DNA of 64,000 bases from Bryobacterales bacterium (GCA_963422375.2 OY729427.2:1780794-1844793); one strand, 5' to 3'; positions 57,176-64,000 are shown, counted from the stretch's first letter. Notes: generated from the letters alone by a model not told the origin. Numbers and translations: made by a program.

Positions 57176-57730
57176 CTAGCGCCAGGCCGGCCCGGAGAAC
57201 CAGGCGACGAGGGAGTAGCGCTCCCCGGCCAGCAAGGGCGTGACGCGATGCTCGACGAAGCTGGGGAAGACCAGCGCCGCGCCTCGCTGGCGCAGCGCCT
57301 CGCGGTCGGGCTGGCCCACGGCCCCCAGCCGCAGCGAGCCGCCCTCGTAGTCGCGGGGGTCGGACAGGTTGACCGAGACGGAGACCTTGCGGCAGCGCGG
57401 CCGCCCGCCCTCCAGCGAGCAGTCCATGTGCCGCTCGTAGACGCCCGCGTCGAGATGGGTGTAGTGCGTGAGCTGCCACTCCTCGCCGCCGTCGAGATCG
57501 AAGCCCCACAGCTCGCGGTTGGCCGCGAGAACGGCCCGGCGCACGCGGGCGAGCTCGGCGGCGTGGCGGGCGGGGTCGGGCCAGCCGACGGCGGAGCGGC
57601 GGATGTCGGGGCGCACGGAGCCGTCGCCGTTGACGGTGCCGGGGCGCAGCTCCGTGCTGTCGAGCAGCGCGCGCAGCAGGCCCGCGCAGTCGTCGACGGC
57701 GCCGGGCACCAGGCTCCAGGGGCCGTTCAC
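57176..57730 (-). CDS. 2OG-Fe(II) oxygenase (prolyl 4-hydroxylase/PKHD-like)
   Basis: IRRS, QLTHY, HMD, RKVS, YEGG, FPSF..HRVTP..GERYSLVAW (HxD...H...R). Confidence 0.92.
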   Translation of the reverse strand: MNGPWSLVPGAVDDCAGLLRALLDSTELRPGTVNGDGSVRPDIRRSAVGWPDPARHAAELARVRRAVLAANRELWGFDLDGGEEWQLTHYTHLDAGVYERHMDCSLEGGRPRCRKVSVSVNLSDPRDYEGGSLRLGAVGQPDREALRQRGAALVFPSFVEHRVTPLLAGERYSLVAWFSGPAWR

Positions 57731-57990
57731 GCGCGGGGGCCCTCCGCGCCGCCGGGGGTCCCGGTCAAGCGGCGCCAGCGGCGGCCGCCGGGAGCCTCCC
57801 AGGTGCCGTCCGGCAGCGGGCGCAGCGGGCGGGCGCCCTCGGCGGAGAGCTCCTCGTCGGACTCGAGCACCCAGAGGGTGACGGGGGCCCTCCCGCGCCG
57901 CGCGGCCAGCTCGCCGAAAGCGCGGAAGCTCTCCGCCGAGAGCTTGTCCGGGTCGCCGTCAGCGAGCATGCGGTAGCGTCGTCCGGCCAT
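57727..57990 (-). CDS. Small hypothetical protein of the collagen operon
   Basis: GGAGGAGG RBS; GTGA overlap with the oxygenase gene. Confidence 0.7.
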   Translation of the reverse strand: MAGRRYRMLADGDPDKLSAESFRAFGELAARRGRAPVTLWVLESDEELSAEGARPLRPLPDGTWEAPGGRRWRRLTGTPGGAEGPRA

Positions 57991-58810
57991 AGTTGCGTCC
58001 TCCTCCGGAAGCGCCCTTGGCGCCCTTGGAGCCGGGCGGCCCGGGCGCCCCCCGGTAGTCCTCGGGGTTGAACGGGCTGCCGGAATAGTAGCCGGCCTCG
58101 CCCTTGCTCCCCTTGTATCCCTTATACCCCTTGTACCCCTTGGCGCCCTTGTACCCCTTGGGGCCCTTCCGGCCCCTGGCGCCCTTGGCGCCCTTGGCGC
58201 CCTTGTACCCCTTGGGGCCCTTGTACCCCTTGGGGCCCTTGGCGCCCCGCGCGCCGTCGGAGCCCTTGGCGCCCTTGGCGCCCTTGGCGCCCTTGGCGCC
58301 CTTGACGCCCCTGTCGCCCTTGCGCCCCTTGGAGCCCTTGACGCCCTTGGCGCCCCTGTCGCCCTGCGCGCCGCCGGGGCCGGGGTCGCCCTGCCTCCCG
58401 GGCAGGCCCCGGGCGCCCCTGTCGCCCTGCGCGCCGCCGGGGCCGGGGTCGCCCTGCCTCCCGGGCAGGCCCCGGGCGCCCCTGTCGCCCTGCGCGCCGT
58501 CGGGGGCGGGGTCGCCGCCCCGGCCCGCCGGTCCCGGGTCGCCCGGCGCGCCCCGCTGGCCGACGGCCCCGGGGCGTCCGCGCTCGCCGCGCCGCTGCCG
58601 GCCGCGGGGCCCGCGCGGGCCCCGCGGTCCGGGCGGTCCGGGCGGTCCGGGGTGCCCCTCGCCGCCGGGCGGTCCCGGGCGTCCGCGCTCGCCGACGGGG
58701 CCGACGGGGCCGGCGTACAGCCGCGGCGCGCCGAAGCCCCCGGCCCGCACGGAGCGGGCGTCCGGGGCGCGCGCGACGATCGTCCACAGCGCCCCGCTAG
58801 CAGCCGGCAT
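57959..58810 (-). CDS. Collagen-like protein D (Gly-X-Lys rich)
   Basis: Long Gly-X-Y runs; 24 of 28 consecutive triplets have Lys at Y; alternative start 58828. Confidence 0.88.
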
Positions 58811-62458: not shown

Positions 62459-62465
62459 GTCGCTC

Positions 62466-64000
62466 CTATGCGGCCGGCGGGCTCGAGTCCGCGATCGTCA
62501 GCGTCAGGCGGTCGCCCGGCCGGATCAGGTCCAGCACCGCGATGCGCGGGTCGCCGCCCGGCAATTGGAAATAGACGTAGCTGTCGCCGACGTCGGTCAT
62601 GTCGGCGTAGCGGATCTCGACCGGCCAGGGCGCGACGGTCTGCGCCGCCTGCGCGCCCCGCGCGAAGTACAGGCTCTTGCCGGAGCCGTCCCCGGATGCG
62701 GAGAACCATTGCCGCGCCGGCCGGCCCGTGACCTCGAAGTTCAGGACCACGTTGTCTCCGTCGGTCCTCCACTCGATGCGCTGGATGGCGAGCCCGGGCG
62801 CGAGCACCAGGTCGGCGCCGTCTTCCACCGACGCCGTCCGGCCCTTGAAAAAGAGGTAGCGCGTGCCCGGGCCGGCCAGGAACGACGCCTCCGCGACCAC
62901 GCCGGTCTTGCCGTCCGTCCGCGTCTGCGGAGGATCGGACGGGGCGGCTCCGGGAGGATCGGACGGGCCGGCTCCGGCAGGCCCGGGATCGCCCTTGGCG
63001 CCCTTCGCCCCGCTCGGCCCGGTCGGCCCGGTCGGCCCGGTCGGCCCGGCTCCGGCAGGCCCGGGATCGCCCTTGGCGCCCTTCGCCCCGCTCGGCCCGG
63101 TCGGCCCGGTCGGCCCGGTCGGCCCGGCTCCGGCAGGCCCGGGATCGCCCTTGGCGCCCTTCGCCCCGGTCGCCCCGGTCGCCCCGGTCGGCCCGGTCGG
63201 CCCGGTCGAGCCCTTCGCGCCCCGCGGCCCGGTCGAGCCATTCGCCCCGGACGGATCGGACGGATCTGACGGGCCGGCTCCGGCAGGCCCGGGATCGCCC
63301 TTGGCGCCCTTCGCCCCGGTCAGCCCGGTCAGCCCGGTCGCCCCGGTCAGCCCGGTCGCCCCGGTCGCCCCGGTCGCCCCGGTCGGCCCGGTCGGCCCGG
63401 TCGGCCCGGTCGCCCCGGTCGCCCCGGTCGAGCCCTTCGCCCCGGTCGGCCCCGGAGGCCCGGCGGGCCCGGTGACCGCGCCTCCGGGGCCCGCCGGGCG
63501 GGGCTGCGGGGGCAGCTCCGTCGCCGGCAGCCGCGTCGCGTCGGGATACCAGCGGTAGCCGCTGGCGGTGGTCCAGCTGCCGTCGGCGAGCAGCTCGAGC
63601 GGGCGCAGGCGGGCCGGGTCGGTGTCGCGCGGCGCGTGGGTGTAGTACACGAACAGCTGCTTGCCGTCCGCGCCGGGCTGGCCGGCGGCTCCGGGCAGGC
63701 CGTCCGCCCCGGGTCGGCCGGCGCGCCCGGACTGGCCCGCCGCGCCGGGTCGGCCGTCGAGCCCGGGCCGGCCCTTCGCGCCGGGGTCGCCGGGGGTGCC
63801 CGCGAGCCCGGGCCGGCCCGCCGCGCCGTCGGCTCCCGGCAGGCCCTGCCGTCCGGGCCAGCCCTTGGCGCCGTCGGCCCCGGCGGCGCCGGTCGGGCCC
63901 GGCGCCCCCTGCTGCCCGGGCTGGCCCTTGGAGCCGTCGGCCCCGGCGGCGCCGGTCGGGCCCGGCACCCCCTGCTGCCCGGGCTGGCCCTTGGAGCCTT
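62466..64000 (-). CDS. Collagen-like protein A with C-terminal globular domain (5' end outside window; possible fibre protein)
   Basis: Gly-X-Y blocks including GPT/GAT/GLT and GAKGAKGDP, a non-collagen insert and a ~150-aa beta-rich C-terminus; frame open at window end. Confidence 0.88.

Follow-up and report, generated by a model that had tools for sequence, protein, structure and literature searches.

Why should a bacteriophage carry, next to its tail-fibre gene, a protein resembling the enzymes with which animals modify the lysines of collagen? The question is raised by one end of a 64,000-nucleotide (nt) stretch of the genome of a Bryobacterales bacterium (OY729427.2:1780794-1844793; hereafter the window, meaning this whole stretch), where seven tightly packed open reading frames (ORFs), all on the minus strand, span position 57176 to the window end. 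In gene order they encode collagen A, a 642-amino-acid (aa) enzyme, collagens B, C and D, an 87-aa protein and a 184-aa protein. An earlier reading made from the DNA alone (the sequence-only reading) had described such a set of co-oriented, tightly packed genes in a prophage, and the order and packing were confirmed by ORF listing and Pfam. The answer argued for here, from sequence and structural models, is that the 642-aa enzyme probably hydroxylates and O-glycosylates, in the cytoplasm, the lysines at the Y position of the Gly-X-Y triplets of the phage's tail-fibre collagens.

On its sequence and modelled structure the 642-aa protein (60530..62458) is a fusion of a COLGALT-like GT25 domain, an LH3/R699-like glycosyltransferase (GT) domain and a lysyl hydroxylase (LH) domain, and its activity is predicted. 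The first domain (residues ~1-215; 61814..62458) is similar to the catalytic GT2 domain of COLGALT1, the second (residues ~226-455; 61094..61783) is a PLOD-type GT-A domain similar to the GT domain of LH3 and to mimivirus R699, and the third (residues ~470-642; 60530..61051) is a 2-oxoglutarate (2OG)/Fe(II) oxygenase of the lysyl-hydroxylase type. Pfam recognises the first two, GT25 at 29.4 bits (cut-off 24) and GT_PLOD at 45.6 bits (cut-off 27), and scores the third, as 2OG-FeII_Oxy_3, just below the cut-off of 27 at 24.8 bits. Phmmer searches of the Protein Data Bank (PDB) return human LH3 (E 1e-21) in two stretches, with residues 250-450 of the phage enzyme matching its GT domain and residues 478-637 its LH domain, as well as the catalytic domain of COLGALT1 (6e-5; residues 50-172), mimivirus R699 (2e-4) and the LH domain of mimivirus L230 (3e-3).

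In alignments, the metal and cofactor residues that were checked are kept in all three domains. The GT25 domain carries G66, C70 and E93-D94-D95; the acidic triplet and C70 line up with E435-D436-D437 and C412 of COLGALT1, in which E435 and D437 chelate Mn and the E435A, D437A and C412S proteins are inactive (PMC12003778). In the middle domain, D297-G-Y299-D300 lines up with the non-canonical DxxD motif of LH3 (D112-S-Y114-D115), and D389-D390 with LH3 D190-D191 at the end of a poly-Asp run. In the hydroxylase domain, H573, D575, H622 and R632 fall on LH3 H667, D669, H719 and R729; of two further residues lining the 2OG pocket of LH3, Tyr656 is matched by Y562 but Cys691 by Leu594. The roles of these LH3 residues, comprising the DxxD that binds Mn and uridine diphosphate (UDP) with its stacking Tyr, the Fe(II) triad and the 2OG pocket, are taken from PMC6082870. 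Conservation within the family follows the same residues: C70, D94, D95, D297, D300, H573, D575 and H622 are invariant in 43 family sequences, the most distant of which has 24% identity, at least 90% of these sequences retain E93, D389 and D390, and R632, the 2OG-binding Arg ten residues past the distal His, is invariant in a 14-sequence alignment.

The fold points the same way. An AlphaFold2 model of the 642-aa protein, built from the 43-sequence alignment, has a mean predicted local distance difference test score (pLDDT) of 92.3 and a predicted template modelling score (pTM) of 0.81. When it is compared with the PDB by Foldseek, every top match is a collagen-lysine enzyme: full-length LH3 (6e-26), the LH3 GT domain (6wfv, template modelling (TM) score to target 0.81), R699 (1e-14), COLGALT1 and the L230 LH domain (6ax6, TM score to target 0.73, root mean square deviation 2.4), with mimivirus R655 also among the matches. 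This agrees with the sequence-only reading, which had proposed AlphaFold as a check. Other members of the enzyme family show further architectures, with an N-terminal methyltransferase before GT25 and GT_PLOD (P0043), two GT25 stretches (P0044) or an added GT2-like domain (P0063).

The genes around the enzyme are closely spaced. Gaps of 7, 15 and 8 nt separate collagen A from the enzyme, the enzyme from collagen B and collagen B from collagen C, whilst collagens C and D overlap by 32 nt, collagen D and the 87-aa ORF by 32 nt, and the 87-aa and 184-aa ORFs by 4 nt. The whole looks like a single translationally coupled operon. All four collagens are assigned to Pfam Collagen (E 4e-23 to 5e-38). 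The window holds the 3' part of collagen A (62466..64000; Pfam Collagen E 4.8e-38), the gene being left open on its 5' side where the contig end cuts it, with 90 Gly-X-Y triplets in this part. Collagen B (59672..60514; 280 aa, 75 triplets) has an acidic, Tyr-rich C-terminal tail, and is followed by collagen C (58797..59663; 288 aa, 73 triplets) and collagen D (57959..58828; 289 aa, 74 triplets). Genome-wide, runs of at least 10 Gly-X-Y triplets occur only in the three copies of the cassette and in two unrelated Gly-rich stretches elsewhere.

Collagens B, C and D are thus of nearly equal length (75, 73 and 74 triplets), although their interruptions are only partly in register, and relatives often have three equal-length small collagens too, for example 51, 50 and 50 triplets in locus L007. 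This near-equality suggests the hypothesis of a heterotrimeric fibre. The collagen cassette has a G+C content of 80-82%, against 67% for the genome. Since the early/lysogeny region of the prophage (window 44000-50000) is similarly rich, at 77-79% or some 10 points over the genome mean, the high G+C of the cassette does not come from Gly and Pro codons alone.

If the enzyme acts on lysines of these collagens, the lysines should stand where lysyl hydroxylases use them. Among the 312 triplets of the window's own collagens, 61 of the 62 lysines are at Y and one at X (collagen B, 2 at Y; collagen C, 19; collagen D, 26; none at X in any of the three), as the sequence-only reading had noticed. The same collagens have 43 Arg at Y and 27 at X, and 76 Pro at Y and 67 at X. 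The pattern extends to relatives. In 21 enzyme lineages, taken as one locus per 90%-identity cluster, 3320 triplets hold 682 lysines at Y and 26 at X, and the bias towards Y is seen in every lineage. Control collagens from same-order genomes without the enzyme are Thr-rich and nearly free of lysine, with 4 at Y and 12 at X in 628 triplets; the enzyme-linked collagens are about eight-fold richer in lysine. Y being the position used by lysyl hydroxylases, the lysine pattern of the linked collagens, as read from their sequences, fits an X-Lys-Gly target.

A second expectation is that enzyme and collagen should travel together. Thirteen full-length homologues (42-53% identity) came from a word-indexed search, and 569 representatives at E <=1e-3, 65 of them at E <=1e-30 (clusters at 50% identity), from an exhaustive one. 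Loci were fetched from reference genomes (17, all of them Acidobacteriota metagenome-assembled genomes, MAGs), IMG/VR (1) and metagenomes (41, mostly marine by name), together with two cultured phages. Forty loci have an enzyme match of at least 500 residues, and 27 of these hold at least 9 kb. In 26 of the 27 a collagen ORF lies on the same strand as the enzyme, the nearest within 2.5 kb; one locus outside this census, with a partial copy of the enzyme (L016), has a collagen at 3.6 kb. Conserved synteny was the test by which the sequence-only reading had offered to be refuted, and it came out in that reading's favour. The linkage includes cultured phages of marine bacteria. Homologues of 25% identity and over 90% coverage stand directly after annotated tail-fibre genes in Roseobacter phage CRP-6 (tail fibre gp60, enzyme gp58) and Synechococcus phage S-CAM9 (tail fibre N161109_027, enzyme N161109_031), and these tail fibres contain 99 and 59 collagen triplets respectively. 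In CRP-6 and S-CAM9 the homologue bears the annotation 'hypothetical protein', and across cultured Synechococcus and Roseobacter phages the enzyme is labelled either 'hypothetical' or '2OG-Fe(II) oxygenase'.

Several observations weigh against a role in modifying collagen lysine. Two are in the enzyme: Cys691 of LH3, which helps to place 2OG, is replaced by Leu594, and the glycoloop Trp that contacts UDP in LH3 (W75) is three positions off in the phmmer alignment, where W265 is invariant in the equivalent loop. Two are in the census: the 9-kb locus L032 has no collagen, the sole exception among the 27, and none of the 13 short loci (2.7-6 kb) shows one, although these may be too short to tell. 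The lysine statistics are also weakened, since tandem repeats and related loci make the counts non-independent and so overstate the p-values for the Y bias of the window lysines (binomial against 50:50, 3e-17), for its excess over the Arg bias (Fisher, 5e-8) and for the difference in lysine position between enzyme-linked and control collagens (Fisher, 1e-13). A preference of Lys, Arg and Gln for Y is moreover partly general to triple helices, and 43 of the 70 arginines in the window collagens are at Y.

The closest known relative of the phage enzyme is mimivirus L230 (895 aa), which has a GLT25D1-like N-terminal domain with E106-D107-D108 and a PLOD-like C-terminal hydroxylase, and which hydroxylates lysine of viral collagen and adds glucose rather than galactose (PMC9614988). 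Both proteins appear, the phage one by sequence and model, to join a GT25-like N-terminus and an LH C-terminus in one chain. The phage protein is thus an L230-type enzyme and not an unprecedented fusion, since the L230 architecture already combines GLT25D1-like and PLOD-like domains. They differ in size and setting: the phage enzyme has 642 aa and lies in a bacteriophage tail-fibre operon, its activity being predicted, whereas L230 belongs to a giant virus of amoebae. An 889-aa Megavirus 'procollagen-lysine 5-dioxygenase' in a viral structure library aligns across the entire phage model, and proteins of ~900-990 aa with GT25, GT_PLOD, OGFOD2-like and 2OG oxygenase domains (Pfam) exist in public data. 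One of these, P0138 (936 aa), is matched by the phage enzyme over residues 78-485 and 755-934; where it has residues 486-754, residue 450 of the phage enzyme joins residue 467 directly. On this alignment the ~270 residues missing relative to P0138 correspond to the accessory region, ~270-340 aa between the GT and LH domains, which is absent from the phage enzyme, the Pfam OGFOD2-like domain being found in the long forms only. The phage form would therefore consist of the three catalytic domains only.

The animal enzymes LH3/PLOD3 and COLGALT1 (GLT25D1) between them have the same three types of catalytic domain as the phage protein, including the metal and cofactor residues checked, and their X-Lys-Gly target fits the phage collagens. 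In animals, however, the activities are on two proteins complexed in the endoplasmic reticulum, each with a non-catalytic GT-like domain (LH3 AC, COLGALT1 GT1), whereas the phage protein appears to be made of catalytic domains only, has no visible signal peptide and has Leu for LH3 Cys691. In mimivirus, R699, a galactosylhydroxylysyl glucosyltransferase, matches the phage middle domain, and R655 is a putative GT25 galactosyltransferase; both are separate proteins, in contrast to the phage domains, which are fused to the hydroxylase.

These comparisons raise the question of whether the middle domain is catalytic at all. The phage enzyme could be like L230 in its chemistry as well as its architecture, hydroxylating lysine and adding one glucose by its GT25 domain, with the middle PLOD-type domain a non-catalytic scaffold comparable to the LH3 accessory domain or COLGALT1 GT1. 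Degenerate GT domains do occur in animal enzymes (PMC6082870, PMC12003778), and the product of L230, the closest characterised enzyme, is described as glucosyl-hydroxylysine only (PMC9614988, PMC9546862). Nevertheless, a scaffold seems unlikely, since the middle domain retains the Mn-binding DxxD, the stacking Tyr and the Asp pair, with D297 and D300 invariant in the 43 sequences, and is structurally closest to R699 and the catalytic GT domain of LH3 rather than to the accessory domain.

The position of the collagen genes bears on whether the substrates are parts of the virion. The element is a temperate tailed prophage, and the cassette is the distal end of its tail module. The 'prophage' origin, also claimed by the sequence-only reading, is confirmed by the genes for an integrase, a CI-like repressor, large terminase, portal, protease, major head protein, tape measure and J-like fibre. 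Upstream of collagen A are the tape measure, tail assembly and completion proteins and an SLT lysin (PHROGs), and further upstream large terminase, portal, protease, major head protein and head-tail adaptor. The phage is read as HK97-like and tailed, with a tape-measure tail module, and probably of siphovirus type. The part of collagen A in the window makes up the C-terminal 510 aa of a tail protein of 1704 aa, which is complete in another copy of the prophage on contig C2 (L002:10626-15740). This protein has an N-terminal J-like region, seven ~50-aa repeats, two collagen blocks and, at the C-terminus, a globular domain of ~165 aa, and is assigned by PHROGs to tail fibre or central tail fibre J (phrog_6320 1e-56, phrog_5616 2e-40, phrog_31 7e-30). 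The seven tandem repeats, of the form GDVAIADDGxWG...W.R.GDLTG, occupy residues ~830-1178, which places them after the J-like part and ahead of the first collagen block. The globular domain after the last collagen block is possibly a receptor-binding tip. Collagen repeats vary in number between copies of the prophage: collagen A of the window is longer than that of the C2 copy by one 30-letter repeat unit, and the longest run of collagen D is 46 triplets in the C1 and C3 copies and 48 in C2.

Collagens B, C and D could instead be proteins of the lysogen's cell surface or matrix, expressed by lysogenic conversion and absent from the virion; the sequence-only reading had allowed for either place. 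Their position at the extreme end of the late operon, a common site for morons and here adjoining a restriction-modification moron, is what would be expected of such genes. This is, however, very unlikely. Reading the translations by eye, with no predictor run, revealed no signal-peptide-like N-termini in the six products downstream of collagen A, the small collagen genes are coupled to or overlap with the tail-fibre gene, and the linked collagens of the cultured lytic phages are annotated as tail fibres. Nor was any promoter-like or terminator-like site found in 56700-57400, downstream of the cassette, a scan from which the junctions inside the cassette were excluded. The tail-module genes and the PHROGs assignments thus favour the virion half of the earlier alternative, and the absence of signal-peptide-like starts counts against the lysogen half.

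That the enzymes act on something other than collagen, with the tail genes coincidental neighbours, is highly improbable. In its favour, the classical GT25 enzymes are galactosyltransferases of lipo-oligosaccharide (Pfam calls GT25 'LPS biosynthesis protein', LPS being lipopolysaccharide), nucleic acids or small molecules are the targets of many phage 2OG oxygenases, PHROGs puts both oxygenases of the cassette in the general auxiliary family phrog_61, and collagens are found at none of the nine loci of at least 8 kb that have the LH-like domain only (L016 and L020, fragments of the full enzyme, being left out). Against it, the three domains are fused, the best sequence and structure match of each is a collagen-lysine enzyme, and the linkage to collagens rich in Y-lysine recurs across unrelated phage types.

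If the enzyme modifies collagen lysine as proposed, analogy with the known enzymes suggests how it would work. The substrates would be the tail fibres, that is, the J-like central fibre with its collagen blocks and the three small collagens of near-equal length. The C-terminal oxygenase domain would hydroxylate the Y-lysines of Gly-X-Lys triplets, using Fe(II), 2OG and O2. The N-terminal GT25 domain would then add a first hexose to the new hydroxyl, either galactose, as in animals, or glucose, as in L230, and a further hexose may come from the middle PLOD-type domain, if LH3 and R699 are a guide. The glucosyl-galactosyl-hydroxylysine named by the sequence-only reading was accordingly a guess at the sugars, given that the GT25-like domain of L230 adds glucose (PMC9614988).

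Phage tail assembly is cytoplasmic. The animal collagen modifications act on single chains before the helix forms (PMC8968730). Taken with the lack of signal-peptide-like N-termini, these two points suggest that the phage enzyme would act first, co- or post-translationally on unfolded chains, and that trimerisation and attachment to the tail would follow. The modification may stabilise the helix in the absence of hydroxyproline, protect the fibre against proteases or take part in receptor binding. The chemical steps, the identity of the sugars, the sequence in which the domains act and what the fibre gains are all inferred.

The last gene of the cassette may add a second modification. The 184-aa protein (57176..57730) is predicted by Pfam, phmmer, AlphaFold2 and Foldseek to be a 2OG/Fe(II) oxygenase with a prolyl-hydroxylase-like fold: Pfam 2OG-FeII_Oxy_3 scores 47.5 bits (E 3.7e-12), and the AlphaFold2 model (pLDDT 88.4) has as its top Foldseek matches the Pseudomonas prolyl 4-hydroxylase PPHD (4iw3, E 6e-11, 28% identity), PHD2, the chlorella-virus collagen prolyl hydroxylase (PBCV-1 vCPH, TM score 0.70) and PiuC-type proteins. 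The best fold matches fall in the PHD/P4H clade (Pseudomonas PPHD, PHD2, PBCV-1 vCPH, Bacillus anthracis P4H and mimivirus L593), although the phage protein is smaller than most members. Orthologues adjoin the enzyme in 15 of the 21 lineages, from soil-type prophages to S-CAM9, and H101, D103, H161 and R171 (HxD...H...R) are invariant among them. In S-CAM9 (L026, 6680-9683) two small 2OG-Fe(II) oxygenase genes lie between the tail fibre gene and the three-domain enzyme, but the second alone is orthologous to the 184-aa protein (30% identity).

Because its closest folds are PPHD, PHD2 and vCPH, prolyl hydroxylase is the best guess for the 184-aa protein, and within the proposed pathway it would most likely hydroxylate proline in the same collagens. 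Against this, seven lineages that bear an orthologue (L026, L031, L034, L040, L045, L048 and L054) have collagens with 0-2 Y-prolines and many X-prolines. A classical role as a 4-hydroxylase of Y-proline is thus not general, since orthologues adjoin collagens without Y-proline, and the sequence-only reading, which had made this protein an X-Pro-Gly hydroxylase, agrees with the fold but is not secure as to the position. The odds that proline is the target at all, judging by sequence and model, are about even. Some loci without an orthologue have few Y-prolines (L008, 5 in 264 triplets; CRP-6, 0 in 99; L051, 3 in 159), but the rule that no small oxygenase means no Y-proline was dropped, as the same seven orthologue-bearing lineages lack Y-proline too. 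The conserved 87-aa protein (57727..57990), between collagen D and the oxygenase, has no match in Pfam, PHROGs or the ESM Atlas; its homologues were found by tblastn only in soil-type relatives (7 loci, 34-47% identity, E <1e-4).

The rest of the prophage inside the window covers 43241..57175, as defined by the repeat boundary, Pfam and PADLOC. The integrase gene (43414-44682, minus strand) is at the repeat boundary and the gene for the CI-like repressor is at 50780-51430 (plus strand), both by Pfam; a ParB-like protein and YqaJ are also encoded in the prophage downstream of the cassette (Pfam). No tRNA was found at the integrase end. Directly after the cassette is a restriction-modification moron (52083-56777), comprising a restriction-enzyme-like 763-aa protein (54486-56777, minus strand; Pfam HATPase_c_3, PADLOC type II restriction enzymes E 2e-34), a C5-cytosine methyltransferase of 367 aa and, on the opposite strand, the ORF of a second and shorter methyltransferase.

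A BLAST search of the genome with this region shows the element to be a 42.3-kb repeat in three copies, at C2:1307816-1350163, across both ends of C1 and across both ends of C3, with identities of 91-99.9% by segment. The window end coincides with a contig end; the break in C1 is inside collagen A and that in C3 inside the tape-measure gene. The assembly breaks are probably due to the prophage repeats, which leaves the joining of C1 and C3 ambiguous. A separate 1.5-kb repeat (for example C3:30160-31680), presumably an insertion sequence, is present in well over a hundred copies of 80-99% identity on all three contigs, and has no near match in the plasmid collection. Elsewhere in the window, a 1398-aa ORF (19441-23637, minus strand) encodes topoisomerase III (E 8e-193) and a RecQ helicase (E 1e-140) in a single fused protein.

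A search of 24 same-genus and 16 same-order genomes found the enzyme in none of them. Over its full length, the 16S gene of the host shares at most 80.5% identity with rRNA-bearing plasmid records, which include Ralstonia, Burkholderia, Azospirillum, Bacillus and Tsukamurella; this speaks against these genera and their close relatives as the host. HemE gave Atlas matches from mixed phyla, and an 8-kb piece of C3 had no near match among plasmids. The cassette has relatives in soil-type (Acidobacteriota) MAGs, which say little about the host, in metagenomes of marine origin and in phages whose hosts are free-living marine bacteria. Nothing in this range points to an animal host, and the suggestion of the sequence-only reading that the fibres might mimic an animal matrix finds no footing in it. 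What stands of that reading is a temperate phage in which collagen fibres are paired with a predicted enzyme for hydroxylating and glycosylating lysine, for which domains, catalytic residues, fold and synteny with Y-lysine collagens all argue; the particular sugars, the X-Pro-Gly 4-hydroxylase, the lysogen surface and the mimicry do not share this support.

According to a 2022 review, prokaryotic and phage collagens are mostly without hydroxylation and glycosylation (PMC8968730). Iyer et al. (2010, PMC2938197) had proposed that collagen-like or tail-collar proteins of bacteria are hydroxylated by 2OG oxygenases encoded nearby, but the oxygenases in question belong to beta-hydroxylase or phytanoyl-CoA-hydroxylase families, occur with sulfotransferases and are not of the PLOD/GT25 type. 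L230 is called the first collagen-glycosylating enzyme outside animals (PMC9614988), and glycosylated collagen is given as not yet producible in bacteria (PMC9546862). Full-text literature searches, with paywalled papers outside their reach, returned no paper on hydroxylysine or PLOD-type enzymes in bacteriophages. The similarity is already registered in databases, since UniProt gives uncultured Caudovirales proteins the automatic names 'procollagen-lysine 5-dioxygenase' and 'procollagen-proline 3-dioxygenase'. What is new here, at the level of sequence, is that an L230/LH3/COLGALT-type system, in a compact three-domain form, is tied to bacteriophage tail fibres and is widespread.

A broader proposal can be put forward tentatively, with the chances somewhat against it: that phages of soil and ocean routinely place animal-type hydroxylysine-linked disaccharides on collagen tail fibres by means of a single soluble enzyme of ~640 aa, that this is an old and widespread phage trait, that collagens B, C and D form a heterotrimer, and that the enzyme offers a one-gene route to glycosylated collagen in Escherichia coli. 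If true, the full collagen-lysine pathway would be common in ordinary tailed phages, and views on the origin of collagen modification would change, the toolkit being no speciality of animals or giant viruses. The compact enzyme should express in bacteria, where it could be used for glycosylated recombinant collagen. For the phages themselves, it would be a novel way of modifying tail fibres and might influence host range and the stability of the fibres.

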